NCBI GenBank assembly: GCA_965221695.1
Contig: OZ244905.1
Coordinates: 3,475,061-3,539,060 of the forward strand
Length of the DNA stretch: 64,000 nt
DNA from: Gammaproteobacteria bacterium
GTDB lineage: Bacteria > Pseudomonadota > Gammaproteobacteria > Eutrophobiales > Eutrophobiaceae
Reading direction: 5' to 3'
The first letter of the stretch is position 1. Each line of letters opens with the position of its first letter. Under the pieces are notes generated by a model. The model worked only from the letters and a program-made list of their open reading frames with translations. It was not told the DNA's origin and made no database searches. Positions 32,756 to 58,496 of the stretch are shown here, in pieces. The position numbers were made by a program, and so were the translations under genes.

Positions 32756-32757
32756 GG

Positions 32758-40150: not shown

Positions 40151-40219
40151 GGTTGTTTCCTCCGATATAAGACTACAATTACCCATCACATTCAGATTAT
40201 TTTCAGCAATCCGGGTTCA

Positions 40220-42745: not shown

Positions 42746-42779
42746 ATTATCCCCTCAGTCTCGGACGATAATCTATCGG

Positions 42780-43973
42780 CTATTCCCAGAACAGTATTTT
42801 ACGAACCGGTTCCTTGCTGAGGTTGTCGAGACTCACGATGTCTCGAGGCATTCTGTCGTAGTTGATCCAGAACGTGTTCATGTACCAGTCCATACGAAAG
42901 CCGCTTTTCGGCTCATAAAAGTACTCCCCCGCCCAGATCATCTGCCAATCTTCGAGCTGGTCATTGGCATTTTGCAGACGCGGGTCAGAGGTTGCTACCG
43001 CGCGCCGATTAACCCGCTGGCGTATCAGTTCCCCCTTTGAATCGAATACCTCTTCATACCAACTGCTACCGGTCTTTATGCCGATGATACGACGCTGTTT
43101 GGCGTACCAGTACGACTCTGAGTGCGGGGTTATTTCCAAAATGTATGAGGGTTCGCAGACACCATCCAGTCCTACATTTATCTGTTCGCCCTTGGTCTCT
43201 GTGGTAAAGCCCATGGTTCCCTCAGCTTGACCGGCATACAGTGTATGGCCGACCACCTTGTAATCGATGTCGGGAAAGGGTTTCACCTGGGGAAAGTCTT
43301 CCCAACGTACGATAGTGCCGGGAATCACGTCTTGGCGCGCAGCCTGCGGCAGACGGCGCACGCGCCGTGCGGCCGGCGTGTAGAGGAATTCATCGTTGAA
43401 CTTTTCGCCGTAGTAGATTGTTGTCGAAATGCCCAGCCCGCGAAAATCATTGGGCGCTACAAAGGTAAACATGTATTGCGCGCGCACCTTGTCGATCAGG
43501 CTTTTAGGCAGGCCATCCTGGTTTTGCCGGTAAGCTATCATCCATTCGAACAGGCGTTTGTCGCGCAAGGTGCCGTTCGGAGAAATGAGGTCAATAGTCC
43601 ACTCGGTGATGTAATTATCGCCAAACTCATTAAAATAAAGCGCGGTATAGGAACGGTCATGGACTTCGCGTCCATCATGTTTGACGCGTTCGGCAACCGG
43701 TTTTTCCCAGGGGTAGGGCAGTCCCGGTTGGACCCAGCGGTCGTAAATTGCGGGGCCGATCGCCTTGTAGTCAACATTATGCCAAGGCTGTGGCTTCCAG
43801 TTGACAGTCTCATCGCCCCATTTGCAGGTGTAGGTTCCGGGTTCGGCGCCTGGCGCAATGGAATATTCCTTGTCCAGGATCATTTCTGCGCCGACCGACC
43901 CTGAGGAAATGAAAAATGACAGAGGCAACAGGATGGTTAAGAAGGTGGATACAACGCGGTTCATTGATTTCAT
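42780..43973 (-). CDS. Periplasmic DUF1329/LolA-like protein
   Basis: Signal peptide; APNDFRG and YTPAARRVRRL motifs. Confidence 0.72.
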   Translation of the reverse strand: MKSMNRVVSTFLTILLPLSFFISSGSVGAEMILDKEYSIAPGAEPGTYTCKWGDETVNWKPQPWHNVDYKAIGPAIYDRWVQPGLPYPWEKPVAERVKHDGREVHDRSYTALYFNEFGDNYITEWTIDLISPNGTLRDKRLFEWMIAYRQNQDGLPKSLIDKVRAQYMFTFVAPNDFRGLGISTTIYYGEKFNDEFLYTPAARRVRRLPQAARQDVIPGTIVRWEDFPQVKPFPDIDYKVVGHTLYAGQAEGTMGFTTETKGEQINVGLDGVCEPSYILEITPHSESYWYAKQRRIIGIKTGSSWYEEVFDSKGELIRQRVNRRAVATSDPRLQNANDQLEDWQMIWAGEYFYEPKSGFRMDWYMNTFWINYDRMPRDIVSLDNLSKEPVRKILFWE

Positions 43974-44099: not shown

Positions 44100-44113
44100 T
44101 AGAATCGTTTCTA
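44100..44113. promoter_or_regulatory. LacI-type operator 1
   Basis: TAGAATCGTTTCTA, 13/14 match to palindrome TAGAAACGTTTCTA. Confidence 0.75.
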
Positions 44114-44124
44114 TTTTCTGTTCA

Positions 44125-44138
44125 TTGTAACGTTTCTA
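44125..44138. promoter_or_regulatory. LacI-type operator 2
   Basis: TTGTAACGTTTCTA (reverse complement TAGAAACGTTACAA). Confidence 0.7.
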
Positions 44139-44168: not shown

Positions 44169-45203
44169 TTACATTCGAGAACAGTTTGGCGCGGCGCTGG
44201 ATTCCCGCAGCACCAGTTCAACGGGATGAGGGCGTAGCAGTTCCGGCTTTTGCTGGCACTGGGTCATGGCAATAAGCAGTTTCGCTGCGCTCATACCCAT
44301 TTCGTAAGCTGGCTGACGCACTGTGGTTAATCGGGGAGTCAGCAATTGCGCCGTGGGGATATCGTCAAAGCCGACTATACTCACCTCACCCGGCACGTGG
44401 ATGCTATTCGACCTGCAGTACTCCAGCGCGCCGATGGCCATCAGATCATTAGCGCACAACAACGCGCTTGGACGCTGGTTTTTCGGCGAATTAAGGAACG
44501 ATTCTGCCAACTGGTAGCCTGAATCCATCTGGTAATCGCCCTCCCGAATACCCATTTCATCGGGATTAATGCCACCCATCGCCAGCCCTTCACGGTAACC
44601 GGCAAGACGCTGTTCCGAGGTCCAGTGCGAGCCAGGTCCTGCGACACAGGCAAATCGTTTATGGCCCAGTTCCACCAGGTGGGAAGCTATCTCCCTCGCG
44701 CCGCGACGGCCGTCAGCAACTACGGTCGGCAGGTCCAGGCCGGGAAACCGCTCATCTACCAGGACCACCGGTCCGATTGACTGTAACTTGAGCAGAGACA
44801 GGGGCGATTCCTGGAAACCACTTTCATATATGACGCCATTCACCCGTTTGCTGCGCAGCAGTCGTTCATTTCCGAATTCCGCTTCTTCGGTGTTCTCAGC
44901 GCTACAGAGCACGACGAGCACATCATGCATTGCCGCGGCTTTTACGACCCCGCGGGCAAGCAGGCTGAAAAACTGGTTCACCAGGTCGGGGACGACCAGG
45001 CCGATTGTTGATGCCTGTTGCCGTTTCAGGTTACGGGCGGATTCGTTGGGAATATAATCCAAGGCCCGGATAGCATTCAAAACCCGTCTTCTGCGCGCCT
45101 CGCTTACCTGCCCTCTGTTGTTCAGCACGTAACTGACAGTGCTGACTGAGACTTGCGCTTGTTCAGCCACATCCTTCATCGTCGGGTTATGGTTTTGCTT
45201 CAT
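44169..45203 (-). CDS. LacI-family transcriptional regulator
   Basis: TMKDVAEQAQVSVSTVSYVLN HTH; YIPNESARNL hinge; NDLMAIG and GFDD motifs. Confidence 0.95.
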   Translation of the reverse strand: MKQNHNPTMKDVAEQAQVSVSTVSYVLNNRGQVSEARRRRVLNAIRALDYIPNESARNLKRQQASTIGLVVPDLVNQFFSLLARGVVKAAAMHDVLVVLCSAENTEEAEFGNERLLRSKRVNGVIYESGFQESPLSLLKLQSIGPVVLVDERFPGLDLPTVVADGRRGAREIASHLVELGHKRFACVAGPGSHWTSEQRLAGYREGLAMGGINPDEMGIREGDYQMDSGYQLAESFLNSPKNQRPSALLCANDLMAIGALEYCRSNSIHVPGEVSIVGFDDIPTAQLLTPRLTTVRQPAYEMGMSAAKLLIAMTQCQQKPELLRPHPVELVLRESSAAPNCSRM

Positions 45204-45982
45204 ATGTGGTCGGCGCTCCCGCCAGCGGCCCAGGACACGATGGAAGCCCAGAGCTCTGCATAATGGGGCCAGTTCATGAACTCATTTGGAGCCCAGTGCG
45301 GCGCCACATCGGATGCGAAGGCCACGCTTCGGCCACGGCCTGCCTTGCCTGCCACAAGCAGTGGGTCGTCACCGTATGCGGCAATCACGGTGGCGCCAGG
45401 TTTTGCCTTCAGCTTGTTATAGCCGAGCAGGATTGGCCAATCGGCAGGCGTTTTTCCCAACGCAGGATGATCCGGAGTTGGAAATGTCGCTTGCAATCCC
45501 TCAGGGACTTCCACTCTGTCGTCGTGGTTCAGCATGGTAACGGGAAGGACCGAAGCCAGGGGGCTGGACTGGTAACGCGCGCGACCATCTATACCCGAGA
45601 AAGACATGTAACCCCCGACCATAAGCAGACCGCCGCCCTCCCTGACATAATCTGCCAGCAAAACCAGGCGATTTGTAGTGCGTTCTGAGCGCAGGAAGGT
45701 TTCATCGCAGAGCAGGAAGGAATTGGAACCTATATCGCTCAAGATGACCACATCGAAGCTTGCGATATCCTGTTTTGCAACAGGAAAGCGTCCGGAGACT
45801 TCGTGCGCCCTAATGTAGGTGACACTAAAACCGGCATTTTCCAGAGCCGAAAGAAAAACACCGGCGCCTTCCTCGTATTCGGTTGTATGAAACTGGTCGA
45901 ATCCTTTCATATGCACAGTATGTTTAACCCAGGATTCGCCAACTACCAATACACTGAGCGAAGAACTGGTCACTGAGTTCAT
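45200..45982 (-). CDS. Class I glutamine amidotransferase-like protein (DUF1355-like)
   Basis: VGESW, KGFDQF, LSDIGSNSFL, MVGGYMSFSG and SDVAPHW motifs. Confidence 0.85.
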   Translation of the reverse strand: MNSVTSSSLSVLVVGESWVKHTVHMKGFDQFHTTEYEEGAGVFLSALENAGFSVTYIRAHEVSGRFPVAKQDIASFDVVILSDIGSNSFLLCDETFLRSERTTNRLVLLADYVREGGGLLMVGGYMSFSGIDGRARYQSSPLASVLPVTMLNHDDRVEVPEGLQATFPTPDHPALGKTPADWPILLGYNKLKAKPGATVIAAYGDDPLLVAGKAGRGRSVAFASDVAPHWAPNEFMNWPHYAELWASIVSWAAGGSADHI

Positions 45983-46040: not shown

Positions 46041-46562
46041 TCAAAGCAGCCGGTCGGTTACGGATTCGGGCAGTTCCCGGGCTTCCGGGACCTGTGGGAG
46101 AGCGATCTCGCGCATATCCCAGCCTATCATCTTATCTGCAATTAATTCAAAGACCCGTTTGCCGGTAGCAGCGCGATATTTGAAATAGCTCTCGGCGTAG
46201 GGATGACCGACATAAAAGTATTTTTCAAATATCAGCGCATCGACCTGTTGCAACAGGTCGGGGTCGGTAACCTGCTTTATGGAGCCATGTATGCGCACGC
46301 CGTGAACGGTGGCATACTCGTCACCGGAATCGACCAGCGCCGTCAGAGCGCTACCTGCCTCGACATTGTCGGCGTGTCGTCCAGCCGCATCGACGGGCAG
46401 AAAAATCCGTTTTTCATGCACCACATAGTACAGTGGCGACATATGGATTGAACCGTCACTGTTTGTTGTGGCGATGCGTATATTTTGTTGCCGGGCAAGA
46501 TAGGCCCAGCGTTTATCTCCGCGCAGGGGCAGGAATGTGCTGGCTGTAGGTTCCTGGCTCAT
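46041..46562 (-). CDS. Pyridoxamine-5'-phosphate-oxidase-like split-barrel flavin/F420-binding protein
   Basis: IATTNSDGSIHMSPLYY, LVDSGDEY..VHGVRIHG and GWD motifs; start MSQEP with RBS GGAGG. Confidence 0.8.
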   Translation of the reverse strand: MSQEPTASTFLPLRGDKRWAYLARQQNIRIATTNSDGSIHMSPLYYVVHEKRIFLPVDAAGRHADNVEAGSALTALVDSGDEYATVHGVRIHGSIKQVTDPDLLQQVDALIFEKYFYVGHPYAESYFKYRAATGKRVFELIADKMIGWDMREIALPQVPEARELPESVTDRLL

Positions 46563-46563
46563 T

Positions 46564-47028
46564 TTACTTTCCTCCGTTGCGCAGGGATTTGAGTTGTTCG
46601 CTGAATTCCGGCGCTTCAACAAGACCGTAGCGAGGCGATGGGCCGCTGGTCCAGAAAAACACGGTTTTCACGCCGGTTGCTTCTAACGTGTATTTATATC
46701 CTCCAGGCAAATAGATGTGCTCGCCGACACCCGCTTCAAGGTATATCACACGACCTGCAGCGTCTTCGACCTTCAGCCGGATTTTTCCCTCCAGACAATA
46801 GTGGGTTTCATCAAAATTGGTCTGGTCCCAGTGATAATCGTCATGGTCGGGTTCCTGGTAGCAATACCCGTGGCGAAAATGGCGCGCGTCGTCACGTTCC
46901 TGGGAGATAAAAATATTGGTGCCGATACCTTTCGCAAAAGGCAACCTGGGCATGGCATGGATTTCTTCCGGGTTGATGACGCGGGGGTATCTCATTGAGC
47001 CATCGTCATAGAGGCTGTAGTCAGTCAT
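46564..47028 (-). CDS. Cupin-fold protein (EutQ/DUF861-like)
   Basis: DETHYCLEGKIRL and GEHIYLPGG cupin motifs; RBS GGGAGG. Confidence 0.7.
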   Translation of the reverse strand: MTDYSLYDDGSMRYPRVINPEEIHAMPRLPFAKGIGTNIFISQERDDARHFRHGYCYQEPDHDDYHWDQTNFDETHYCLEGKIRLKVEDAAGRVIYLEAGVGEHIYLPGGYKYTLEATGVKTVFFWTSGPSPRYGLVEAPEFSEQLKSLRNGGK

Positions 47029-47223: not shown

Positions 47224-47252
47224 TTGACCAGCAAAATTAGAAACGTTACTAT
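47224..47252 (+). promoter_or_regulatory. Sigma70 promoter overlapped by LacI-type operator 4
   Basis: TTGACC-N17-TACTAT with TAGAAACGTTACTA at 47238-47251. Confidence 0.78.
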
Positions 47253-47290: not shown

Positions 47291-48733
47291 ATGGGCTTTC
47301 ATCACAACATTATCATTGACGTTGACAACTATAAACATTGTCATTATTCGCTCTATCCGCCCGGCACGGAATATGTATCGAGCTATATTGAATCCCGGGG
47401 GGGACTGCTTCCATCAACGATGTTTGTCGGCTTGCAGGCGTATTTGCGCGAATATCTTATGCGCCCTATCACCTTGGAAGATATCGACGAAGCAGAGTTT
47501 GTAGAACGTGAACAGGGCATGCATTTCAATCGTGATAACTGGCTGGGGATACTTAACGACCACGGCGGTTTTCTGCCGGTCGAGATTGAAGCAGTGCCTG
47601 AGGGCACGGTGTTGCCGCCGAAAAATGTGCTGGTACAGTTAATCAATACCGATCCGAAATATTACTGGGCAACCAGCTTTTTCGAAACGTCACTATTGCG
47701 TGCGGTCTGGTATCCCACCACAATCGGCAGTATCAGTTGGCTTAGCAAACAAATTATCCGGGATTCTCTGGAACATACTTCGGATAACCCGGGAGTTTTG
47801 CGCCATATGCTGCACGATTACGGCGCGCGCGGAGTGAGTTCGCAGCAGTCCGCCGCTCTGGGCGGTCTGGCCCATCTGGTCAATTTCAGCCAGAGTGATA
47901 CCTTGCCCGGGATTATCGCCGCGAAACGCTACTACAACGCCGGCCATGTCTCAAATTCAGGTCCGAATTCCGAACATGCCGGCTTCTGCGCTTGGGGTAG
48001 GGAGCACGAAGCCGCGGCGCTCAGCAATATGCTGGATATGTATGCGGATAATGGAGTCGCGTTGCTGCTTACCGATACCTATGACCATGAGAACTGTGTT
48101 AAGAATATCATCGGCAAGGAGTTGAAAGAGAAAATTCAGAATTTTCCAGGATTGGTCGGCGTGCGACCCGACTCCGGCGATGTGGTGCAGGTCACTTCCG
48201 ATACTACGGAGTGGCTCATGGAGGCGTTTGGCTACGAAGTCAATTCCAAAGGTTACAAGGTATTGCCTCCTTACCTCCGGGTGGTTCAGGGTGATGGGGT
48301 GAATTTCCCGGTTTTGCCGAAGATATTTATCGAACTGGAACGGCGCGGGTTTTCAGCCGAGAATGCAATCTATGGCATGGGTGGCGGATTGTTGCAACAC
48401 TTTCATCGAGATACTATGAATTTCGGGCAGAAGGCCAGCGCGGTCTGTGTCAATGGAGAATGGCGGGATATTTACAAGGCTCCGACCGGTTCTGATTTTA
48501 AGGTGTCCAAGAAAGGTCGGTTGGCGCTCAAATTTGAAAACGGCACGTACACTACCGTGCCGCGGGATTCCATTCCTCCGGAAGAAAACGTGTTGATTCC
48601 GGTCTTCAGAAATGGAAAGTTGTTGAAGAAATGGGATTTCACTGAGTTGATTGAGCGTAGCGAACGCGAATACCCAGAGTCATACTATCAGGATATTGTC
48701 AGGCCACTGCGTGAAGCTCGCAAAGCCGATTAA
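47291..48733 (+). CDS. Nicotinamide phosphoribosyltransferase (NAMPT/NadV)-like protein, divergent
   Basis: DNYK, VSSYIESRGG, WYPTT, HDYGARGVSS, SEH, VRPDSGD, QGDG, GMGGGLLQ and SKKGRL motifs. Confidence 0.88.
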   Translation: MGFHHNIIIDVDNYKHCHYSLYPPGTEYVSSYIESRGGLLPSTMFVGLQAYLREYLMRPITLEDIDEAEFVEREQGMHFNRDNWLGILNDHGGFLPVEIEAVPEGTVLPPKNVLVQLINTDPKYYWATSFFETSLLRAVWYPTTIGSISWLSKQIIRDSLEHTSDNPGVLRHMLHDYGARGVSSQQSAALGGLAHLVNFSQSDTLPGIIAAKRYYNAGHVSNSGPNSEHAGFCAWGREHEAAALSNMLDMYADNGVALLLTDTYDHENCVKNIIGKELKEKIQNFPGLVGVRPDSGDVVQVTSDTTEWLMEAFGYEVNSKGYKVLPPYLRVVQGDGVNFPVLPKIFIELERRGFSAENAIYGMGGGLLQHFHRDTMNFGQKASAVCVNGEWRDIYKAPTGSDFKVSKKGRLALKFENGTYTTVPRDSIPPEENVLIPVFRNGKLLKKWDFTELIERSEREYPESYYQDIVRPLREARKAD

Positions 48734-48801
48734 CCCGGCAATGATCTCCCGGGCTTGCCGGACTTAGCCCAAATACTCCTTGAGATCAGGGTATCAACCT
48801 G

Positions 48802-49452
48802 ATGACCTGTTTGCATGTTTTTGATATGGATGGCACTTTGCTCAAGGGTTCTGCCTGTTGGGAAATCTCACGTTGCGTTGGTGTTTTGGATGAAACCCTG
48901 GCCATTGAAGAGGTTTGGGCAAAAGGCGAGATTAGCGACAATGACTTCTGGATAAGATGTCTTCCATTGTGGGACGGCTTGACCGATAAGGTTATAGACC
49001 ATGCTTTTGCCAACAGCCCCTGGCTTGATGGTGTGGAGGCTGTTTTTGCTGATATTTGTGCGCGCAAAGAAAAAAGTGTCGTGATCTCACAGTCACCGTT
49101 GTTTTTTGTGGAGAGGCTGCAGCGGTGGGGGGTGGATTTTACCTACGGCGCGCGGGTGACCCCGGGAAATTCAGCGGGCGCAGACCAATTGGTGACCAGC
49201 AGAGATAAATTAGACATCGCGCGTCAATTACTGTCGGAGCTTCGTCTGAGTAGTGACAGTTGTATCGCCTATGGCGACTCCATGTCAGACTTTGACCTGT
49301 TCAGGTCTCTTCCCAATACCGTGGCAATTAACGCGAGAGAGAAAATTCGTGATCTGGCTCAAGTCTGTTATGACGGGTCGAACTTATGGAGTGGCTATTC
49401 CCTTGGACGAAAATTGCTTGAAAACCAGGCATCTGAAAATATTTCAATATGA
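48802..49452 (+). CDS. HAD-IB phosphatase (phosphoserine-phosphatase-like)
   Basis: FDMDGTL, ISQS and YGDSMSD motifs. Confidence 0.85.
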   Translation: MTCLHVFDMDGTLLKGSACWEISRCVGVLDETLAIEEVWAKGEISDNDFWIRCLPLWDGLTDKVIDHAFANSPWLDGVEAVFADICARKEKSVVISQSPLFFVERLQRWGVDFTYGARVTPGNSAGADQLVTSRDKLDIARQLLSELRLSSDSCIAYGDSMSDFDLFRSLPNTVAINAREKIRDLAQVCYDGSNLWSGYSLGRKLLENQASENISI

Positions 49453-49496
49453 ATGACGCAGTGGCGACGACAATGGGCGCCGCGACTTCAGGCTGA

Positions 49497-51812
49497 CTAA
49501 ACGCCGGGCTGAATAGCAGTGTCGGTACGGCGGCATTGGGTGTTTGCCAGCAGTGTTTCATAAGTCGTTTTTTTGCTTTCGGGCAGATGAGCGGCCCTTA
49601 GTTCCAATACTTCCAATAATGAGCAGGCCTGCTCCGGTCTCGTTGAATTTGAACGGATGCGAGTTCTTTGCAGCATGCCTTCCCACCACATCTCCATAGA
49701 TGGCGTCAACTTTTCGGTAATTACGCGCCAGGCCCTGTCTGCGGCAAAATGGTTTCCGCTCAGCTCGGCGCTGCGCGCCAGCAAACGCCAGGCATCGCCG
49801 GAATTCGGATGTTCACGGCTGAATGCCAACGCCTTGTTCAGGGCTGTTCTATGATCGCGTAGAGCAAGCAGGCTTTCAATGATGAGGCGATAAAGGCGAC
49901 GATCCATATCGGGCAGCGTTGCGGCGGCAGGGTGAACAGTCAGCGCCAGACTCAATCGTTCTGATACGTCTGCACGCGTTGCGATCCATGGATATATCAA
50001 CTCCCATGGGAGGGCGTGAGTATTCTTTCCTGCGAGCGTATTTAACCATTCCGTCAATCCTGACCAGTTACCCGAGCGGTCATATAATTGAAGCCGCGAC
50101 CATGATACGGCTTGATGAACCATTATATCGGGATGTTGGTCGGCGTTGACAAGCGCTGAGCTCAGCAACCTGATCAGTTCGTCGGGATGCTCCGCAATCA
50201 ACGCTTCTTGTTCTTCCGGTTCGAAATTTTTCAGATTCTCCAGGAATTCCAGAGAGTTGAGCAATTCTATAGGGTTTATGTCGATGAGCGCGCGCATCTG
50301 CAGTAGCGCCGCGATATTAAGCGGATTCTCCTGTTCTGTCTTGGGTAGCGCCTGGTATGCGTGCTTGCCTTGATGCGCCAACTCAAACGCGGTCTTCGTT
50401 TTGCCGGATGCGATCCTGGTGTTGAATTCACGGGCTATGATCTGAAATGTGGCGCGTTCCACTGCTCCATCGAACGCCTCTTTCGAACGGATTCGTCTGA
50501 GTATTTTCAGGGACGTATCCATATCTGTTGCGCTATGGGCCAGGTATAATCGGGCTTGCTCGGCTTCGGGATCATCAGGATTCTTGTCAATAAACTGCCG
50601 CGCGGCCTGCTGTAGAGTCTTGGAGTTGTTTTTTGTATCGTCTGTGTGCGCGCGCGCAACGTGAACAGTATAGAGTAACTTTACGGCCGCCTTGTCTACC
50701 TCAGCCGTCAATCCGTTCCTGCGCGTCAGACTTTCAAGGATACGCACAGCCGCCTGATAGTTCCCGGTCTTATAGGCCGCAAAAGCCCAATTATAGTAAG
50801 ACCTGTCAAGATTGACCTCTTGCGGTGGAATGACCTCCTTAAAAAAGGCTTCATATTTCTGCAATGCCTTCTGGTAATCTTCATGGCGGAGTCTGAATTC
50901 AGCGGCAGCCAGGTTGTTCCAGGGCGCGATCTTCAGCGCAGCAATTTCAGGGGCATAGGCCATCATGTCATCAAGCAATTGCTGGTCCAAGTAGCCGGCT
51001 TGTATGAGAGCTTGAAGACGCTGAGCAATTCCATTTAAGGTTCTTCCTTCGTCGCGGCTCTGCTCAAGCATGGCAAACATTTCCATGCGCAGCATTTCGG
51101 CCTGCTTTGCATCGATATTCCTGCCGGAGACGCCGAGAGCCCCTAGACGCGCTTCCTGTAAGCGTATTTCCAGTGAAATCGCCCTGCTTATTGTCTCATC
51201 AGGTAACGCCAATAACGCCTCATCCAGTTTGGCGAATATCTGTTGCGCGCGCGCGGTATGGCCCTGCTCCATCTCGACACAACCGATACCCAGCCATCCT
51301 CCGTAAAATATACCTGGCCGGAACAACTGCAATGAAGCTGTCTGAAAACCGCCACGCGCGCGGGCAAGGAGAATATCCTTTTCCGACCGGGCGCTTCGGG
51401 CCATTTCCAGGTCTATCCATGCAGCCCAATAGATAAACGACGCTTCAGCAAAGCTCAGATCATCCCAGGCCTGAGAACGGTACAAACGTTCCAATGCGGC
51501 TTCGTTTTGTCCGGTCTGTTGCTCAGCGTCAGCCAGAAGCTGTTCGACGCGTGACTGCATCGCGCCAAGCAGGCCTCGGGTTAACTCGAGTTTTTCCGGT
51601 CCCGTACTTTGTTTGCGGGCCCGGTCAACCACTCGACCTGTCTCTTCAGCGATGCCGGCAACGCGAGAGGCATCTGACACCGTGTTCAGTTCACTGGATA
51701 AGACTTGCAGTCGCTCGAGCACATCTCTACTTTCCACGGTGATTGCGGGCGCGCTCGGCAGTAGCAGGACCAGGGCCATTCCCAGCGTTGCTGTAAGCAT
51801 GATTTTGTTCAT
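49497..51812 (-). CDS. Large exported alpha-helical (TPR-like) protein
   Basis: 771 aa with signal peptide; TPR-like segments such as YNWAFAAYKTGNYQAAVRILE and HPNSGDAWRLLA. Confidence 0.65.
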   Translation of the reverse strand: MNKIMLTATLGMALVLLLPSAPAITVESRDVLERLQVLSSELNTVSDASRVAGIAEETGRVVDRARKQSTGPEKLELTRGLLGAMQSRVEQLLADAEQQTGQNEAALERLYRSQAWDDLSFAEASFIYWAAWIDLEMARSARSEKDILLARARGGFQTASLQLFRPGIFYGGWLGIGCVEMEQGHTARAQQIFAKLDEALLALPDETISRAISLEIRLQEARLGALGVSGRNIDAKQAEMLRMEMFAMLEQSRDEGRTLNGIAQRLQALIQAGYLDQQLLDDMMAYAPEIAALKIAPWNNLAAAEFRLRHEDYQKALQKYEAFFKEVIPPQEVNLDRSYYNWAFAAYKTGNYQAAVRILESLTRRNGLTAEVDKAAVKLLYTVHVARAHTDDTKNNSKTLQQAARQFIDKNPDDPEAEQARLYLAHSATDMDTSLKILRRIRSKEAFDGAVERATFQIIAREFNTRIASGKTKTAFELAHQGKHAYQALPKTEQENPLNIAALLQMRALIDINPIELLNSLEFLENLKNFEPEEQEALIAEHPDELIRLLSSALVNADQHPDIMVHQAVSWSRLQLYDRSGNWSGLTEWLNTLAGKNTHALPWELIYPWIATRADVSERLSLALTVHPAAATLPDMDRRLYRLIIESLLALRDHRTALNKALAFSREHPNSGDAWRLLARSAELSGNHFAADRAWRVITEKLTPSMEMWWEGMLQRTRIRSNSTRPEQACSLLEVLELRAAHLPESKKTTYETLLANTQCRRTDTAIQPGV

Positions 51813-51830
51813 GGAATCATTACCAAAACG

Positions 51831-52940
51831 TCATATCAGGTCCAGCAATGCTTGCATCTCGGAGGCAAATTGATCCCCCATGATCAGCTTTATCAGGCGT
51901 TTGGTCAGTCTGATTTCTCCGTCCAGCGTTGCAGCATCGCCATGTCCAGCTTCGCTGATCATCAGGAATTCAGGCATCGGCGCATTACGATACAAGTGTC
52001 GCGGGACTGAGCGGCCTATCCTTGCTTCCAACAGTTGCGGGTTGGCCTGTTCGCTGACATCAAGGGTAGAAACGGTACCGCCTGAATGACTGAACTGCTC
52101 TACCATTTGCACAACTTGATCCAGCTTTTCCTGCCGGACAGGCGCATCGCCCACCAGTATAATCAGCCTGCGCGCGCCAATACGCCAACCTGAGAGACTG
52201 ATAGCATCGGCCAAACCGCTATCGATTGCCTCAAACCAGTCGCCGCCACCCTCTGCGCTGAGTTCAGACAGGAAAAGCCGGAGTTTTACCGAGCTATAGG
52301 TCAGCGTTTGCGTGCGAGAGATAAACTCAGGGTCATCGAGGTCACGATAAGCGACGAAGCCGAAGCGAGCTATTGGCACCAGCGAGCGCACGAGCCGGAT
52401 TATATCTTCAATGCGTTGCTTTACTTCATCGATTACCCAGTCCATAGAGCCTGTGGCGTCGACGCAGAAAACCACATCCAGGCCGGCCTCGCGTAGGCCG
52501 GCAATGAAGGGGACGAAACGAGCCTTTCCGTCTCCCAGACCGTGACCCATGCCGATTTTGTAACCGCCCCGGCCGCTGCTGTTTCCGATTGAAACCAACG
52601 CGATATCTTGGGGGATATCGATACCTTGAAAACCTTGCCCCTGCGCTCTGAGTGAAATAAGAGAAGCAGGCGGGGGAGGCAGCGCGGCCTTAGGCGTAAT
52701 CAATATCTCAGGCGGATCGAAATCCAGTTCCTGTTCAAATTCAAGTTGTTGTTCCGTGATAGCCGGTTGTTCAAGCTCCAGTTCAGGTTCCTGTTGAATC
52801 AGGATCTCCACTTGTTCAGGCGCGATCCGCAAGGGTTGTGCGAGCCTGCCGCCTGCATGCCATAGCGCTAATGTGTGTACAAGCAATGAGAACAGCAGCA
52901 GGGACAGCCAGATAACAGAGCGCTTGACAGAAGCAGGCAT
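51831..52940 (-). CDS. Membrane-anchored protein with TonB-like N-terminus and C-terminal vWA domain
   Basis: TM with SLLVH, E/Q/P-rich linker, MIDAS DATGSM, GFVAYRD, GGGDWFEA and LVGDAP motifs. Confidence 0.82.
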   Translation of the reverse strand: MPASVKRSVIWLSLLLFSLLVHTLALWHAGGRLAQPLRIAPEQVEILIQQEPELELEQPAITEQQLEFEQELDFDPPEILITPKAALPPPPASLISLRAQGQGFQGIDIPQDIALVSIGNSSGRGGYKIGMGHGLGDGKARFVPFIAGLREAGLDVVFCVDATGSMDWVIDEVKQRIEDIIRLVRSLVPIARFGFVAYRDLDDPEFISRTQTLTYSSVKLRLFLSELSAEGGGDWFEAIDSGLADAISLSGWRIGARRLIILVGDAPVRQEKLDQVVQMVEQFSHSGGTVSTLDVSEQANPQLLEARIGRSVPRHLYRNAPMPEFLMISEAGHGDAATLDGEIRLTKRLIKLIMGDQFASEMQALLDLI

Positions 52941-52943
52941 TCA

Positions 52944-53020
52944 GCAACCTCTGATTAAGTCAGGTAGTCTTACGGTACATGGATGCGCGCGCCCTGACAA
53001 GCCAGCGCTTGTCAGGGCGC
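52944..53020. repeat. Degenerate copy of the miniature element
   Basis: GCAACCTCTGATTAAGTCAGG, then TACGGTACATGGATG and hairpin GCCCTGACAAG...CTTGTCAGGGC. Confidence 0.6.
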
Positions 53021-53443
53021 GCTAACTCCGGGCCGGGTAACCAGAACAAACCTGTATATACCTGCTTTTGACGCCGCGTTCATCAAGTCAGAAATGATCA
53101 GCGCATTCGCCTTGGCATCTGCATGAATCCTGAGTTTTTCATATCTCAGTTCCCGGGCAAGCGTCGTTGTTAATTCGGCGAGGTCGATAGAGCGAGCCTG
53201 AAACCATAGCTTGCCGTCATGGGCCACGTATACCACAGGGACATTCAGATTTGTTTCAGAATTCCGGGTCGATACCGGGAGGCTGATGTCAAAGTCGGGT
53301 TCCAGACTTCCCGCAACCATGAAATAGAGCAACAAAAGGAATATGACATTTATCATGGGAACCACATTTTCTTCCCGGTTTCTGTTGTCTTTTGGTTTGT
53401 GACGATACAGAATTCGGGACGGTCTGTGTCTTTTTTGCGCCAA
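53012..53443 (-). CDS. exbD: ExbD/TolR family protein
   Basis: VVPMINVIFLLLLYFMV TM (Asn at the usual Asp position); IHADAKA. Confidence 0.85.
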   Translation of the reverse strand: MAQKRHRPSRILYRHKPKDNRNREENVVPMINVIFLLLLYFMVAGSLEPDFDISLPVSTRNSETNLNVPVVYVAHDGKLWFQARSIDLAELTTTLARELRYEKLRIHADAKANALIISDLMNAASKAGIYRFVLVTRPGVSAP

Positions 53444-53458
53444 AGGGAAGGCTCTATA

Positions 53459-53875
53459 TCAGTCGAAATTTCGGGCAGTGGTCATTGAAATATTGGAAAT
53501 GCCGTGCCGGTTGAACAAGTCCATCACATCTACTGCGCGCTGCAACGTTACCGCCGGATCGAGACCGAGGTTAACGCGTGCATCGCCGGGAGCAGCGAGA
53601 CCTGCCGCATAATGCGACAAACTGTCGATATCAGTAGCGGATCCGTTTAGCCAGATCGCGCCGTTATCGTGTAATTCAATGAAAATCAGGTTCATATCGT
53701 TAGCGGCGCCGGCAACGCCGGCTGCTTTGCTGAATTCCATTGTGTGTGGGCGGAGAAAGTTGGTTTGCAGCATGAAAAATACCAATAGAATGAAAACACA
53801 GTCTATCAGCGGAGTCAGCGACAAACGTCTGTTGCGCCGCCTGGGTTTTATTTCATGGAAGGTTCTGGCTGCCAT
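53459..53875 (-). CDS. exbD: ExbD/TolR family protein
   Basis: LTPLIDCVFILLVFFML TM with the conserved Asp. Confidence 0.9.
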   Translation of the reverse strand: MAARTFHEIKPRRRNRRLSLTPLIDCVFILLVFFMLQTNFLRPHTMEFSKAAGVAGAANDMNLIFIELHDNGAIWLNGSATDIDSLSHYAAGLAAPGDARVNLGLDPAVTLQRAVDVMDLFNRHGISNISMTTARNFD

Positions 53876-53904
53876 GTTTATGATTTTCTTTTGAGAAATC
53901 CGGT

Positions 53905-54537
53905 TCAGGAAAGAGCCGGTAGTGTCAGAGCCCGGCTGAATACATCATTGACCAGATTGGTAAGCGCTTCCAACTTTGCCTCAAGCAACGCGTGCAGAAT
54001 GGCAAAACATATCGCCACGGACAGCCCCACCGCCGTTGTCAATAATGCCTCCCAGATGCCGCCGGCTAAAGCGGTCGACTCCGCGACGGAACCGGCGTTG
54101 GAGGCCAGGCCCTGGAAGGCATCGATCATGCCGAGGACAGTGCCCAGCAGTCCAAGCACAGGCGCAAGCGTGTAGATCAACTCGAGTAGCCGGAGGTTTT
54201 TTGCATACTCACGCAGAAATTCAGAGCAGCGGCGCAGGCTTTCATCGTACAGGTAATCGCTGTCTGTCGTGGTATGCTGTTCCAGAACAAATTTCAGATC
54301 GCCGGCAATGGTCAGCGGCGACTTGTCAAAAATATCCAGCGCGCGTTCTGTTTTGCCTTTGTGCCACTGTTCTACTGCCTGGTAGAGACGCTGTAATGTG
54401 GATTCGCTGGCCTTTGAAAACTGCAGAAATTTATGTAGGGCCAACGCCAGTCCAAGCGCCGAGGTTACGAGTAAAATGACAACAATCGGTCCCCCAAGCG
54501 TCAATAGTGTCAGGATGTCTTCAATAATTTCCGACAA
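53905..54537 (-). CDS. exbB: ExbB/TolQ/MotA proton-channel protein
   Basis: APVLGLLGTVLGMI and GIWEALLTTAVGL motifs. Confidence 0.9.
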   Translation of the reverse strand: MSEIIEDILTLLTLGGPIVVILLVTSALGLALALHKFLQFSKASESTLQRLYQAVEQWHKGKTERALDIFDKSPLTIAGDLKFVLEQHTTTDSDYLYDESLRRCSEFLREYAKNLRLLELIYTLAPVLGLLGTVLGMIDAFQGLASNAGSVAESTALAGGIWEALLTTAVGLSVAICFAILHALLEAKLEALTNLVNDVFSRALTLPALS

Positions 54538-55645: not shown

Positions 55646-55690
55646 CAGACGAACCTCATATCCGCACAGCAAACCAGACAACAGGCTTAA

Positions 55691-55762
55691 TGAACCTCTG
55701 AACAAGTCCAGAGCCTGTCCTCTGCCTGATGCAGGAACAGAATGGACTTATTGCAAGCTTCC
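55691..55762. repeat. Degenerate copy of the miniature element
   Basis: TTAA-TGAACCTCTGAACAAGTCC...GGACTTATTGCAAGCTTCC. Confidence 0.6.
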
Positions 55763-55823
55763 ATAATATAATTCCTTGAAAGAGTACTAGTTGCATACCG
55801 GTTATTCAACCACCATATCTTAT

Positions 55824-56795: not shown

Positions 56796-56802
56796 CCGGC
56801 AG

Positions 56803-58335: not shown

Positions 58336-58371
58336 AGCCGCTGGCTGATACAACAAAATCTCGGGCCGGCA

Positions 58372-58421
58372 TGGGACCGCGGGCATCCCGCCTGCCTACG
58401 GGCGGCACGCTCGCGGTCCCA
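58372..58421. repeat. GC-rich REP-like inverted repeat
   Basis: TGGGACCGCGGGCATCCCGCC...GGGCGGCACGCTCGCGGTCCCA. Confidence 0.6.
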
Positions 58422-58468
58422 GAGTGGGCTTGCCGCCATCCCTTTCCGGTACAGCGATTGCGAGTTAA

Positions 58469-58496
58469 GAACCTCTGATTAGGTCTCACAGCTTCC
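58469..58496. repeat. Degenerate minimal copy of the miniature element
   Basis: TTAA-GAACCTCTGATTAGGTCTCACAGCTTCC-TTAA. Confidence 0.65.

Follow-up and report, generated by a model that had tools for sequence, protein, structure and literature searches.

We analysed a 64,000-nucleotide stretch of a gammaproteobacterial genome (contig OZ244905.1; hereafter the window), in which a gene for a nicotinamide phosphoribosyltransferase (NAMPT)-like enzyme is followed on the same strand by a phosphatase gene. The genes and sites of the locus are listed below, with the basis for each assignment in brackets.

30690-31511, minus strand: DUF3891 protein (Pfam)
31669-32469, minus strand: SDR (Pfam)
32758-33939, minus strand: Rieske oxygenase (Pfam)
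36935-37810, 36403-36891 and 34006-36387, minus strand: M, S and L subunits of a Qor-like molybdenum hydroxylase (Pfam)
37958-38434, minus strand: CoxG (Pfam)
38447-40189, minus strand: DUF1302 protein (Pfam)
40220-42745, minus strand: RND/MMPL transporter (Pfam)
42780-43973, minus strand: DUF1329/LolA-like protein (Pfam)
44100-44113 and 44125-44138, unstranded: two operator-like sites (upstream of the DUF1329-RND-DUF1302 operon)
44169-45203, minus strand: LacI-family repressor, CytR/RbsR-like (Pfam, NCBIfam)
45200-45982, minus strand: GATase1_like protein of the STM1381 family, 260 aa (PF07090, 330.7 bits)
46041-46622, minus strand: PNPOx-fold flavin/deazaflavin oxidoreductase, Rv2991-like FDOR (Pfam PNPOx_N)
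46564-47028, minus strand: small cupin, EutQ/cupin_3-like, 154 aa, first gene of the divergent operon (weak cupin matches)
47238-47251, unstranded: operator-like palindrome TAGAAACGTTACTA (40 nt 5' of the start codon of the NAMPT-like gene)
47291-48733, plus strand: NAMPT-clade phosphoribosyltransferase P0001, 480 aa, 'Q201' clade (Pfam, NCBIfam, AF2 model, clade columns)
48802-49452, plus strand: HAD-IB phosphatase P0002, 216 aa (TIGR01488, conserved residues, fold)

P0001 contains the Pfam domains NAMPT_N (PF18127, 76.4 bits) and NAPRTase (PF04095, 124.8 bits). It scored above the NCBIfam equivalog cut-off of NF006629 (506.5 versus 405 bits) and far below the PncB equivalog cut-offs (NF009131, 34.2 versus 330 bits; TIGR01513, 28.2 versus 297.4 bits). 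Its AF2 model (pLDDT 95.4) matched Xcc NAMPT (7yqo) and human NAMPT (2gvg) with TM scores of 0.91-0.95 and, for the best chains, an rmsd of 1.5-1.7 Å, at 39-42% identity on the structure-based alignment. Members of the Q201 clade are 74-97% identical and span Gammaproteobacteria, Actinomycetota and others. The best 120 matches listed for the enzyme were all 76-96% identical; in a library of representatives at 50% identity, one representative stood at 76% and all others listed at 49% or below. In a tree of 72 sequences (22 clade, 50 canonical), a branch with an SH-aLRT of 100 separated the clade from the canonical sequences. The stem measured 0.73 changes per site, and the mean path within the clade was 0.33, versus 1.46 among canonical sequences. 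The initial annotation had called the enzyme a divergent NAMPT-family member; fold and family bear this out, and P0001 belongs to a sharply distinct, horizontally spread branch of that family. Our literature search found no description of the Q201 clade. We also considered fused forms with partner domains among four long relatives (P0124-P0127), which turned out to be tandem NAMPT duplications. Paralogues at 57-62% identity, with other pocket residues, are present in the same loci, and those of loci L032 and L034 come with their own cupin and reductase.

The motif changes listed in the initial annotation are all present in the translation and alignments: DNYK at residue 12, HDYG at 175, FSQSDT at 199, PNSEHA at 225 and LTDTYD at 260, for which the counterparts in Xanthomonas and human NAMPT are DSYK, HDFG, F-x-GTDT, PAAEHS and VSDSYD. 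The motifs said to be retained are likewise there, namely RPDSG (292), QGDG (333) and His229. We compared alignment columns between 121 clade members and 127 canonical representatives of 430-530 aa, after dropping 22 of the 149 representatives (P0124-P0272) whose length fell outside this range. Residue 13 is Asn in 121/121 clade members versus Ser in 100/127 canonical sequences; residue 177, Tyr in 120/121 versus Phe in 127/127; residue 201, Gln in 121/121 versus Gly in 116/127; residue 224, Gly in 117/121 versus Ile/Val in 125/127; residue 226, Asn in 121/121 versus Ala in 126/127; residue 230, Ala in 120/121 versus Ser in 115/127; and residue 290, Gly in 121/121 versus Val in 116/127. The canonical lining of pocket and tunnel (Ala226, Gly201, Ile/Val224, Val290) is replaced in the clade, and a check for the same substitutions in ordinary NadV proteins found the replaced positions near-invariantly canonical in the 127 representatives. 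Both groups share invariant D12, Y14, K15, D176, R180, H229, R292, D294, G362, G364, R373, D374 and K381; H175 is kept in 120/121 clade members, G365 in 121/121, and D203 in 121/121 (125/127 canonical). The residues for catalysis, the phospho-His and the PRPP ligands are all retained. In the sandwich that holds nicotinamide between Tyr14' and Phe177 and reads its carboxamide through Asp203, Tyr14 and Asp203 are kept and Phe177 becomes Tyr. The change from Phe to Tyr at 177 is a conservative one.

The replaced positions coincide with published pocket and tunnel residues, as the annotation's claim of clustering around the base pocket had it. Xcc F177, I224, A259 and V291 are NAM site or tunnel residues in structures, according to an excerpt of PMC10907753, and Ala242 of the phage enzyme Namat is a nicotinamide pocket residue, according to an excerpt of PMC12774641. 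The clade-invariant substitutions are more than chance and map to the NAM pocket and the lateral tunnel.

The phosphatase that had been noted behind the NAMPT-like gene is present, and the pairing is conserved: among 80 related loci searched by tblastn, a HAD gene lies directly 3' of the NAMPT-like gene in 61 and anywhere in the locus in 66. P0002 matched TIGR01488 (51.4 bits, cut-off 45) and remained below the SerB equivalog cut-off (TIGR00338, 47.1 versus 144.15 bits). Across 43 orthologues, D8, D10, G11, T12, S98, K136, G158, D159 and D163 are invariant, so that the HAD motifs I-IV (DxDGT, S98, K136 and GDxxxD) are all kept. The model (pLDDT 94) has a phosphoserine-phosphatase-type fold (TM 0.72-0.74), and the phosphoserine phosphatase chains that rank highest by fold are 19-22% identical to P0002; the C1 helical cap is also of this type, which in solved relatives encloses small substrates. 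The gap between the two genes is 68 nt, we found no terminator-like site within it, and the phosphatase is probably co-transcribed with the NAMPT-like gene.

The palindrome ahead of the NAMPT-like gene overlaps the spacer and -10 element of a promoter-like site (47224-47252). Three operator matches were found in the window versus 0.07 expected, and three of the six operator-like sites in the genome (up to two mismatches) are in the module. Allowing the same number of mismatches, TAGAAACGTTTCTA occurs in 58 of 81 loci across phyla, and shuffling those loci gave 0; the sites lie upstream of the NAMPT-like gene in 42 site-gene pairs and upstream of the cupin gene in 24. Locus L095 has two sites versus 0.01 expected. 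The LacI gene is present in 64/80 loci, its orthologues are 52-87% identical in 17 of 21 sampled loci (the remaining four had no called orthologue), and its product is presumably the regulator of the module. The module operons share one palindromic operator, conserved along with the regulator, in a putative local LacI-family regulon.

The divergent operon begins with the 154-aa cupin, which has no Pfam or NCBIfam match, weak cupin matches in the PDB and EutQ/cupin types as its nearest Atlas clusters; an orthologue is found in 55/80 loci. The FDOR (50/80 loci) has weak F420-PPOX matches under the cut-off and Rv2991 as its best PDB match. As listed, its open reading frame overlaps the cupin gene by 59 nt, and its orthologues are mostly 171-197 aa, so its true start may lie further downstream. 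The GATase1_like protein is a core partner in all module types (61/80 loci and the plasmid variants). It matches PDB entries 3soz and 2gk3, which have no assigned function, at about 250 bits, and its orthologues showed no conserved Cys nucleophile in the conservation profile.

Beyond the repressor gene, the DUF1329, RND/MMPL and DUF1302 genes (38447-43973) may constitute the regulon's envelope transport system in Proteobacteria, and the same trio recurs in a second gammaproteobacterial lineage, in an operon headed by the operator. The island's oxidative section spans 30690-38434. The best solved relative of the hydroxylase L subunit is quinoline 2-oxidoreductase (632 bits, versus 473 for CoxL), and the Rieske protein resembles carnitine/glycine-betaine monooxygenases more than it does ring dioxygenases (105 bits). 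The initial annotation had linked the pair to oxidative enzymes, and the link was upheld: the Qor-like hydroxylase co-occurs with the NAMPT-like gene in 9/9 carriers of the genus, with an 84-86% identical orthologue about 11 kb from that gene in all eight other carriers. In genome G005, a 75% identical orthologue adjoins the module; its operon is headed by the operator and also includes Prs and the transporter.

The annotation's two-gene module stood in part: both genes are real and paired, but the pair sits within a much larger mobile, co-regulated module. Its core comprises the LacI regulator, the STM1381-type protein, a ribokinase-like PfkB (49/80 loci by tblastn), Prs (43/80) and a nucleoside hydrolase (32/80); the 80 loci are kin, and these linkage counts overstate independence. 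The module Prs passes the ordinary Prs subfamily cut-offs (359 versus 297). Around the core are variable ring-processing sets: cupin with F420-type reductase; Qor-like molybdenum hydroxylase; or LLM monooxygenase, amidohydrolase and aldehyde dehydrogenases. The window's own copy lacks PfkB, Prs and SnoaL, and the window's nucleoside hydrolase shares just 26-38% identity with its counterparts at the loci where one occurs. In G005, the nucleoside hydrolase gene lies between two operator sites, beside the module operons.

The module is accessory and horizontally mobile. Any NAMPT-family match was found in 10 of 126 genomes of the order and in 9 of 23 in the genus, and 12 plasmid records carry a copy at 60-80% identity. 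The module is also on Rhodococcus and Arthrobacter plasmids; in those of Arthrobacter crystallopoietes and Rhodococcus pyridinivorans, the same core is surrounded by LLM, flavin reductase, amidohydrolase, tautomerase, aldehyde/succinate-semialdehyde dehydrogenases and FdhF. We searched flank DNA against five module-free genomes of the genus for island borders and found almost no synteny, since species of the genus are too divergent at the DNA level, and no insertion site was definable. An Fgd equivalog (429 in L071, cut-off 420) was found in 17/80 loci, F420 biosynthesis genes adjoin a sister module on pDK1, and FbiC is present in the window's own genome. We rejected F420 as a module marker, as CofH scored above its cut-off in 21/23 genomes of the genus, with the module or without. 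A defence or anti-defence role was likewise set aside: the enzymes had no PADLOC match, and the only match, of 17 bits, was to the HTH of the regulator. The Mycobacterium massiliense island listed in PMC4263727 contains a different trio, Prs-NAMPT-Nudix. No Rfam match reached the gathering score in the window or in L032.

We propose, at a probability of roughly 0.45, that this gene pair forms the ribosylating core of an accessory, mobile island under LacI repression that serves to metabolise, most likely to break down, an N-heteroaromatic compound. We infer the reaction direction, the riboside product, the logic of activation and the kind of substrate as follows. The NAMPT-clade enzyme would open the catabolic pathway by N-ribosylating a nicotinamide-like heterocycle with PRPP. 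Asp203 would still read a carboxamide or lactam-type group, with the ring stacked between Tyr14' and Tyr177, and the substituent side would be read by the more polar remodelled pocket and tunnel (Gln201, Asn226, Asn13, Gly224, Gly290, Leu258). The HAD-IB phosphatase would then strip the 5'-phosphate to give an N-riboside and thereby draw the reaction forward. With its nitrogen quaternised or activated in some other way by ribosylation, the ring could be attacked by (i) the Qor-like molybdenum hydroxylase, (ii) the F420-type PNPOx-fold reductase with the cupin, or (iii) the two-component LLM monooxygenase of the plasmid variants, together with their amidohydrolase, tautomerases and aldehyde dehydrogenases. 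In more complete modules, the nucleoside hydrolase would recover ribose, which the ribokinase-like kinase and the dedicated Prs would return to PRPP. Candidate substrates that we considered are 6-hydroxynicotinamide and other pyridone carboxamides, aminoimidazole carboxamide, quinoline- or isoquinoline-type bases and 3-substituted pyridines. One common substrate across lineages is not assured under this catabolic-island reading, because the ring-processing enzymes differ between lineages.

A broader form of the proposal is more tentative. A neofunctionalised NAMPT and its phosphatase would use PRPP-dependent N-ribosylation as a removable activating handle for N-heteroaromatic breakdown, in a catalytic 'ribosyl cycle' spread across phyla as one LacI-controlled module with interchangeable ring-processing cassettes. 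Its intermediate would be a cationic or lactam N-riboside, then dearomatised and opened by F420-dependent reductases, molybdenum hydroxylases or flavin monooxygenases, after which nucleoside hydrolase, ribokinase and a dedicated Prs would recover the ribose.

We weighed these proposals against ordinary nicotinamide salvage, which we consider unlikely, with P0001 acting as NadV and its NMN either passing to NAD via PncC, NadD and NadE or being dephosphorylated by the HAD enzyme to nicotinamide riboside, to be stored, exported or cross-fed. On this view the pocket changes would do no more than tune kinetics or abolish the allosteric tunnel site. Salvage would account for the score above the NF006629 cut-off and for the nicotinamide-contact and catalytic residues that are kept (D12, Y14, D203, R292, H229). 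Human NAMPT has been crystallised as G217R or G217V, judging by entry titles, and this position, equivalent to Gln201, tolerates large residues. In contrast, the clade has replaced the canonical Phe177, Ala226 and Gly201, and the replacements are themselves invariant. As the annotation had stated, the ORFs scanned around the two genes yielded neither an NMN adenylyltransferase nor a Nudix domain; its check for a canonical nadV or pncB elsewhere in the genome also came back empty, with a single PF04095 match genome-wide. P0001 is therefore the sole family member here, and the NAMPT-like gene is the only strong NAMPT/PncB-family gene in five other carriers. A PncC-type domain protein and a 214-aa cytidylyltransferase-like open frame of NadD size occur in the genome, and NMN from P0001 could feed NAD. 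Of the four CTP_transf_like matches in the genome, three are open frames whose sizes (174, 490 and 214 aa) suggest CoaD-, HldE- and NadD-like proteins, respectively, and the fourth is a RibF-like frame that adjoins ileS and murJ; no NMN adenylyltransferase partner was found in window or genome. Canonical nadV clusters also contain prs, as salvage would have it, but the nadV of our one canonical control locus is preceded by a 345-aa ADP-ribose pyrophosphatase gene. Salvage also fits poorly with a gene that is patchy in the genus, shares its operator with transport, hydroxylase, reductase and cupin genes, and travels on plasmids amid annotated catabolic-type genes.

The riboside might instead be the end product, with a toxic or signalling heterocycle converted to an N-riboside for storage or for export (through the RND system in Proteobacteria), in detoxification or biosynthesis. 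We regard this as quite unlikely. PfkB, Prs, the phosphoribosyltransferase and the phosphatase do make up a complete route from ribose to riboside, and the RND/DUF1302/DUF1329 system is under the same operator. However, the nucleoside hydrolase, found in 32 of the loci and beside the module operons in G005, would undo the product, actinobacterial loci lack the exporter, and the dehydrogenases, amidohydrolase, tautomerases and FdhF of the plasmid variants suggest that carbon flows into central metabolism.

The initial annotation had also offered a reverse reaction that frees a base for the oxidative enzymes; in the form weighed here, PfkB would phosphorylate a nucleoside and the phosphoribosyltransferase would then release the base together with PRPP. 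Phosphoribosyltransferases are reversible in vitro, and PfkB kinases include nucleoside kinases (weak matches). This direction is disfavoured and very improbable, because the co-encoded ribokinase-like kinase (49/80) and PRPP synthetase (43/80) would supply PRPP to the forward reaction, and a dedicated Prs would be pointless were PRPP the product. Moreover, the phosphatase would compete for the nucleotide, and the nucleoside hydrolase already gives a direct route to the base. The phospho-His, His229, is retained, and its phosphorylation drives the forward reaction in NAMPT, according to an excerpt of PMC10907753.

A Namat/NARP1-like scheme, in which the Prs-like gene makes ADP-ribose pyrophosphate and the NAMPT-like enzyme joins nicotinamide to it, is hardly credible: the pairing of NAMPT and Prs homologues is the NARP1 layout in the excerpted text of PMC12774641, but the module Prs is an ordinary one by its cut-offs, the window module has none, the enzymes had no PADLOC match, the 2014 matching phage records all stay under 60% identity, and the clade has GGGLLQH[WHFCV][NH]RD instead of the Namat clamp motif given there.

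Among known systems, NAMPT/NadV (7yqo, human) shares with the clade the two-domain fold, phospho-His, ribose and phosphate ligands, carboxamide Asp and stacking Tyr. The clade differs in Phe to Tyr, pocket Ala to Asn, tunnel Gly to Gln, tunnel Ile/Val/Val to Gly/Gly/Ala and Ala to Leu, all clade-invariant, and in having no NMN adenylyltransferase partner, a phosphatase gene downstream and a place within a LacI regulon with catabolic-type genes. Namat of phage NARP1 is, like the clade, NAMPT-derived and paired in many loci with a Prs-family gene, and its substrate has changed, as is proposed for the clade. Its base pocket is conserved (Phe189, Asp215, Ala242) and its entrance has gained an adenine clamp, in the excerpt of PMC12774641, whereas in the clade the pocket and tunnel have changed instead. 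In N-methyl-pyridinium catabolism (tgn; homarine homABCDER), the quaternised ring is opened with its N-substituent attached, as we propose here; the TgnAB statement and homarine results excerpted from PMC13236597 provide a precedent in which the ring of N-alkyl pyridinium compounds is opened. The plasmid variants, compared by description only, resemble the tgn/hom set in having flavin reductase and monooxygenase, a hydrolase/peptidase-type enzyme and an aldehyde dehydrogenase. In the N-methyl pathways the methyl group arrives with the substrate, whereas in the proposed module the cell itself would add the ribosyl group, which fuller modules would recycle. Finally, the island L subunit is closest among solved structures to Qor of P. 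putida 86 (PDB 1t3q), with M, S, CoxG and Rieske genes nearby, but the island hydroxylase is a relative only, and its Rieske protein has other affinities. We know of no Qor cluster with a phosphoribosyltransferase.

NAMPT is a heavily studied enzyme of NAD metabolism and a drug target, and to our knowledge the only natural change of substrate in its family is that of Namat, on the PRPP side. The Q201 clade alters the base side, at residues of interest to medicinal chemistry (the Gly217 position, the tunnel and the Ala244 position). The name 'nicotinate phosphoribosyltransferase' and the GO term 'NAD biosynthetic process' have been propagated to clade genes on catabolic plasmids and may be wrong. 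If the substrate is not nicotinamide, the clade would represent a new activity in the NAMPT family, would assign a function to uncharacterised STM1381/PF07090 proteins and to one set of F420-type reductases, and might uncover a new degradation strategy for compounds of the pyridine or quinoline type.

Two adjacent genes on the forward strand encode the phosphoribosyltransferase and phosphatase considered here:

47291-48733, + strand: P0001, NAMPT-like phosphoribosyltransferase, 480 aa, with NAMPT_N and NAPRTase domains
48802-49452, + strand: P0002, HAD-IB phosphatase, 216 aa

P0001 scored 506.5 bits on NCBIfam NF006629 (cut-off 405), and PncB models in the NCBIfam profile search gave it only 22-34 bits. 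Its nearest solved structures are Xanthomonas campestris (Xcc) NAMPT (394 bits) and human NAMPT (about 316 bits). An AlphaFold2 model with a 95-sequence alignment as input (mean pLDDT 95.4) superposed on both with TM-scores of 0.91-0.95 and an rmsd of 1.5-1.7 Å for the best chains. P0002 scored 51.4 bits on TIGR01488 versus a cut-off of 45; the SerB model gave it 47 bits, far under its cut-off of 144. Its catalytic motifs are complete and invariant across 43 orthologues. The P0002 model (pLDDT 94) has a phosphoserine-phosphatase-type fold (TM-score 0.72-0.74), with 19-22% identity to the top-ranked phosphoserine phosphatase chains of the fold search.

The initial annotation had listed seven motifs in P0001, with departures from the NAMPT/NadV consensus around the base pocket. 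All seven were found, at residues 12, 175, 199, 225, 260, 292 and 333, and the claimed replacements of DSYK, HDFG, F-x-GTDT, PAAEHS and VSDSYD were seen in alignments with Xcc and human NAMPT. We then compared alignment columns between 121 members of the clade formed by P0001 and its close relatives and 127 canonical NadV/NAMPT representatives, 22 of 149 having been dropped because they fell outside 430-530 aa.

Columns that differ between the clade and canonical NadV/NAMPT
Position 13: clade Asn 121/121; canonical Ser 100/127
Position 177: clade Tyr 120/121; canonical Phe 127/127
Position 201: clade Gln 121/121; canonical Gly 116/127
Position 224: clade Gly 117/121; canonical Ile/Val 125/127
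Position 226: clade Asn 121/121; canonical Ala 126/127
Position 230: clade Ala 120/121; canonical Ser 115/127
Position 258: clade Leu 109/121; canonical Ala/Ser 127/127
Position 290: clade Gly 121/121; canonical Val 116/127
Position 359: clade Ala 121/121; canonical Ile/Val/Leu 114/127
Position 379: clade Gly 119/121; canonical Ala 121/127

Both groups share D12, Y14, K15, D176, R180, H229, R292, D294, G362, G364, R373, D374 and K381. H175 is present in 120/121 and G365 in 121/121 clade members, and D203 in 121/121 clade and 125/127 canonical sequences. By alignment, Xcc numbering equals that of P0001 through residue 254; P0001 then runs one lower until 326, where the registers become equal again. 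In the available portion of the Xcc NAMPT study (PMC10907753), nicotinamide is sandwiched by Phe177 and Tyr14 and hydrogen-bonded to Asp203, a lateral tunnel holding a second nicotinamide is lined by His175, Ile224, Ala259, Val291, Ile332 and Ala360, and the phospho-histidine is His229. The accessible text on Namat (PMC12774641) counts the Ala equivalent to Ala226 among its nicotinamide-pocket residues. Gln201 aligns with the human NAMPT position in structure entries titled 'mutant G217R' and 'G217V', and a further entry title at the equivalent position is 'Structural Basis for Resistance to Diverse Classes of NAMPT Inhibitors'. Judged from the column comparison and these published residue roles, the clade has retained the chemistry and the PRPP site and appears to have rebuilt the base pocket and tunnel, which confirms and extends the earlier observation.

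The best 120 protein matches to P0001 in a large protein search were all 76-96% identical, with hosts including Gammaproteobacteria MAGs, Pseudonocardia, Williamsia, Planosporangium, Blastococcus and Solirubrobacterales. An exhaustive search of 50%-identity representatives returned one at 76% (P0123); the other representatives listed were at or below 49%, and P0124-P0127 (35-44% identity) are tandem NAMPT duplications. This gap among the representatives listed therefore marks the clade as discrete. In a phylogeny of 72 rows (22 clade and 50 canonical sequences, the latter the first 20 plus 30 random ones out of 127 length-filtered), the clade is set apart as one side of a single branch (SH-aLRT 100; stem length 0.73 changes per site). 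Tree paths averaged 0.33 within the clade and 1.46 among canonical sequences.

In the window, the NAMPT-like and HAD genes are divergent from four module genes:

46564-47028, - strand: small cupin
46041-46622, - strand: PNPOx-fold protein, 193 aa as listed, overlapping the cupin ORF by 59 nt
45200-45982, - strand: GAT-like protein (GATase1_like, PF07090, STM1381 type)
44169-45203, - strand: LacI-type regulator

PNPOx-fold orthologues are mostly 171-197 aa, and the real start of the window gene is probably further downstream. A locus scan with one genome per species gave 156 loci with relatives, and we used the best 80 (74-97% identity). Because ORFs in related loci were called heuristically (as the longest ORF, with GC3 filtering where G+C exceeded 60%), linkage was counted by tblastn with the window proteins and three proteins of the related locus L071, at a query coverage of at least 50%.

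Genes linked to the NAMPT-like gene among the best 80 loci; counts are lower bounds because contig ends cut several loci, the loci are kin so that counts are not independent, and the control, canonical nadV gene context, is n=1
HAD, same strand, within 500 nt downstream: 61/80
HAD, anywhere in locus: 66/80
LacI regulator: 64/80
GATase1_like (PF07090): 61/80
Small cupin: 55/80
PNPOx-fold protein: 50/80
Ribokinase-like PfkB: 49/80
Prs: 43/80
IU-type nucleoside hydrolase: 32/80
SnoaL-like: 26/80
F420-dependent glucose-6-phosphate dehydrogenase (Fgd): 17/80

The genes are typically arranged as cupin, PNPOx-fold, GAT-like, LacI, PfkB, (SnoaL), NAMPT-like, HAD, Prs, (Fgd), and the nucleoside hydrolase gene is transcribed divergently. 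Across 21 sampled loci from Proteobacteria and Actinomycetota, the six window proteins were 35-97% identical to their called orthologues, and no orthologue was called in 13 of the 126 protein-locus cells (six proteins by 21 loci). This spread of orthologous sequences indicates that the module genes were transferred together. The window carries a reduced version of the module, in which no PfkB, Prs or SnoaL gene was found; its genome has a single Prs gene, whose product shares 46% identity with the module type, and a PfkB gene located some 100 kb upstream of the one for the NAMPT-like enzyme. The SnoaL-like gene follows HAD in the eight closest relatives (L014-L021).

A convergent TPR gene ends 45 nt past the HAD stop (49452-49497). 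The segment directly after the module (49497-54537, - strand) encodes TPR (771 aa), VWA, two ExbD and one ExbB proteins, and the TPR and VWA genes are syntenic in close relatives. At 54602-59488, an IU-type nucleoside hydrolase with a ~49-residue N-terminal extension (domain from residue 50) is divergent from a ribose-type ABC transporter (binding protein 55791-56795, ATPase 56803-58335, permease 58505-59488). This hydrolase shares just 26-38% identity with the hydrolases linked to the module in other loci that have one, so it probably belongs to a separate nucleoside/ribose uptake unit.

A NAMPT-like copy at 60-80% identity occurs in 12 of the 197 plasmid records with a match, and the annotated contexts of three were examined. 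Carriers available in culture include A. crystallopoietes DSM 20117, R. opacus DSM 43205 and Pseudonocardia thermophila DSM 43832. The conjugative plasmid pLDW-10 of Arthrobacter crystallopoietes carries a nucleoside hydrolase, LLM oxidoreductase, NIPSNAP, aldehyde dehydrogenase, HAD-IB, 'glutamine amidotransferase' and LacI, together with ribokinase, Prs, amidohydrolase, two tautomerases, NAMPT-like and flavin reductase genes. Plasmid pA of Rhodococcus pyridinivorans has the same core plus succinate-semialdehyde dehydrogenase, an aldolase/citrate-lyase-family protein, an FdhF/YdeP oxidoreductase with FdhD, and thiC. On pDK1 of Rhodococcus sp. DK17, a 62% identical sister gene lies with HAD-IB, cupin, PNPOx-family, Prs and nucleoside hydrolase genes, and with CoA-transferases, acyl-CoA dehydrogenases and aldehyde dehydrogenases. 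The module thus has a constant core (NAMPT-like, HAD-IB, GAT-like, LacI, PfkB, Prs and nucleoside hydrolase), and the ring-processing enzymes differ between module versions. Pocket residues vary with context: in the plasmid copies, Y177, Q201, G224 and N226 are retained and positions 13, 290 and 359/360 are changed, and Ala175, Phe177, Glu203 and His226 are found in the DK17 copy.

A 14-bp palindrome with the consensus TAGAAACGTTTCTA (at most 2 mismatches) was found in 58 of 81 loci and in none after mononucleotide shuffling of the same loci. Within 450 nt upstream, it gave 42 site-gene pairs for the NAMPT-like gene and 24 for the cupin gene. It is also present in Actinomycetota of ~70% G+C, where an AT-rich word is unexpected. 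The window has exactly three sites against 0.07 expected, and they make up half of the six found genome-wide at the same stringency:

47238-47251: operator-like site, 40 nt before the NAMPT-like start codon, overlapping the spacer and -10 of a promoter-like site
44100-44138: two operator-like sites, upstream of the DUF1329/RND/DUF1302 operon

The LacI protein is the presumptive binder of this shared operator.

Second NAMPT-like copies at related loci (L032/L034 and L064) are 57-62% identical, keep Q201 and are otherwise intermediate. The L032 copy has its own operator-headed string of thiC, cupin, PNPOx-fold, NAMPT-like and nucleoside hydrolase genes. Paralogues with differing pockets, each with its own cupin and reductase, would be expected if the family reads related bases. 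The thiC gene heading this string (L032:4064-5677, - strand) scores above the ThiC equivalog cut-offs and has a LacI-type operator 8 nt upstream; no TPP riboswitch was found there at gathering score. A ThiC-equivalog thiC also accompanies the module in L091 and L097 (L097:1236-2993), and that of the R. pyridinivorans plasmid lies ~11 kb from it. A link with aminoimidazole ribotide chemistry is conceivable.

The operon behind the paired operator-like sites is followed by oxidative genes:

42780-43973: DUF1329 protein, in the operator-headed operon
40220-42745: RND protein, DUF1329/RND/DUF1302 operon
38447-40189: DUF1302 protein, same operon
37958-38434: CoxG, downstream of DUF1302, same strand
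36935-37810, 36403-36891, 34006-36387: molybdenum hydroxylase M, S and L subunits, same strand as CoxG
32758-33939: Rieske oxygenase, same strand as CoxG
Past the Rieske oxygenase, same strand: SDR and DUF3891 proteins

Among solved structures, the L subunit matched quinoline 2-oxidoreductase at 632 bits and CO dehydrogenase at 473, and this Qor-like enzyme hints at a quinoline- or pyridine-type ring as substrate. The DUF1302/DUF1329/RND system, which we take to be associated with hydrophobic substrates, hints at a hydrophobic one. Ten genomes of the genus have an L-subunit orthologue at 84-86% identity. Nine are the nine carriers of the NAMPT-like gene; in eight of these, the window's genome aside, the two genes share a contig and are ~11 kb apart. 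The tenth genome is fragmented (88% complete, 760 contigs) and gave no NAMPT-like match, and the remaining genus genomes have only L-subunit paralogues at or below 38% identity. In G005, the genome of an independent gammaproteobacterial lineage, the NAMPT-like protein is 85% and the L-subunit orthologue 75% identical. There, an operator 23 nt before Prs heads a minus-strand string (Prs, DUF1329, RND, DUF1302, CoxG, M, S, L, CoxD-like, CoxE-like). Running divergently from this string are the cupin, PNPOx-fold, GAT-like, LacI, PfkB, NAMPT-like, HAD and SnoaL genes; a nucleoside hydrolase gene and a second operator lie between the two. No close L-subunit orthologue was found near the module in the three actinobacterial genomes tested; Pseudonocardia thermophila has a 35% identical relative 14 kb away from it.

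The Rieske protein is nearest, weakly, to carnitine/glycine-betaine monooxygenases (105-124 bits over the N-terminal half) and less like aromatic ring dioxygenases. Carnitine and glycine-betaine monooxygenases act on quaternary ammonium compounds. A ~160-bp repeat lies at 30475-30648, between a sulfate-permease gene and DUF3891, and has dozens of matches (81-93% identity) in two other genus genomes. With a partial copy at ~52939-52990, between the VWA gene and ExbD, it flanks the island and the TPR/VWA genes. Upstream, 7051-21943 encodes a further catabolic-type set of pyrimidine-nucleoside phosphorylase, TonB-dependent receptor, GMC oxidoreductase, LLM oxidoreductase, aldehyde dehydrogenase, amidohydrolase and P450.

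The PNPOx-fold protein resembles Rv2991, and its matches to F420-dependent PPOX models are sub-threshold. Contextual support for its use of F420 comes from an Fgd equivalog above cut-off in L071 and a CofG/H-type two-radical-SAM gene adjoining the module in L069 and L078. On the linear catabolic plasmid pDK1, cofE, cofC, cofH/fbiC and pgl lie directly beside the sister module, and the window's genome encodes a fused FbiC-type F0 synthase outside the window (C1:829500-831767). F420/F0 synthesis is unusual for Gammaproteobacteria. We rejected F420 as a module marker: CofH exceeds its cut-off in 21 of 23 genus genomes (completeness of the other two: 83% and 88%). F420 is thus a background trait of the genus, and its synthesis seems genus-wide.

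P0001 is the sole match to PF04095 and PF18127 in the window's genome, a single contig of 3.54 Mb; a second, canonical nadV or a pncB, a point raised by the initial annotation, is therefore absent. The genome has nadC and four cytidylyltransferase-like matches: open frames of 174, 490 and 214 aa, which by size we take as CoaD-, HldE- and NadD-like, and a RibF-like frame beside ileS and murJ. None of these four genome-wide matches is NadM- or NadR-sized. A PncC/CinA-domain protein is encoded, which makes conversion of NMN to NAD by way of NaMN conceivable. Five other carrier genomes likewise have no strong PF04095 match besides the clade protein; three of them show an additional match, at 22 bits in two (frames of 429 and 486 aa, which could be PncB) and at 34 bits in one (a 202-aa frame). 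At E <= 1e-30, NAMPT-family matches occur in 10 of 126 genomes of the order and 9 of 23 of the genus, the window's included, and several complete single-contig genus genomes have none. The NAMPT-like gene is accessory, not housekeeping.

Ordinary nicotinamide salvage would suit the retained nicotinamide-reading residues, the status of the gene as the only family member in its genomes, and the presence of PncC and a NadD-sized frame. We nevertheless consider it unlikely, as it poorly explains the coordinated replacement of invariant residues, the missing adenylyltransferase, and the patchy distribution and regulon. Family and fold, the clade-specific pocket, gene linkage, the shared operator and the mobile, accessory distribution are results of this analysis, from which all that concerns the substrate is inferred. 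The reading we prefer, with a probability of roughly 45%, is that the pair turns a nicotinamide-like heterocycle into its N-riboside, so that the compound enters, or is activated for, a catabolic route. A ribokinase-like kinase and Prs encoded alongside, together with the phospho-His that is retained, would favour the forward direction; the phosphatase step would render ribosylation irreversible, and ribose could be recycled through the nucleoside hydrolase, kinase and Prs. An N-ribosylated pyridine-type nitrogen would be a cation, and thus a ready acceptor of hydride from an F420H2-dependent reductase or of nucleophiles at the molybdenum hydroxylase. The proposed cation would resemble N-methyl-pyridinium substrates, whose rings, in the part of PMC13236597 available, are opened while the N-substituent stays on.

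Riboside formation for export or detoxification would accommodate the RND system but not the hydrolase or the aldehyde and semialdehyde dehydrogenases, and we regard it as somewhat more doubtful than salvage. The reverse, base-releasing reaction that the initial annotation had offered as an alternative is at odds with a dedicated Prs and seems very improbable. We give almost no credence to a Namat-like role, since the clade fails the Namat motif test as published in the accessible text of PMC12774641 and has no phage relatives above 60% identity.

The full-text literature searched, which leaves most subscription journals outside its coverage, held no description of the clade, the module or PF07090/STM1381 function. 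P0001 and its relatives represent a branch of the NAMPT family with a predicted change on the base side, set in an undescribed module.
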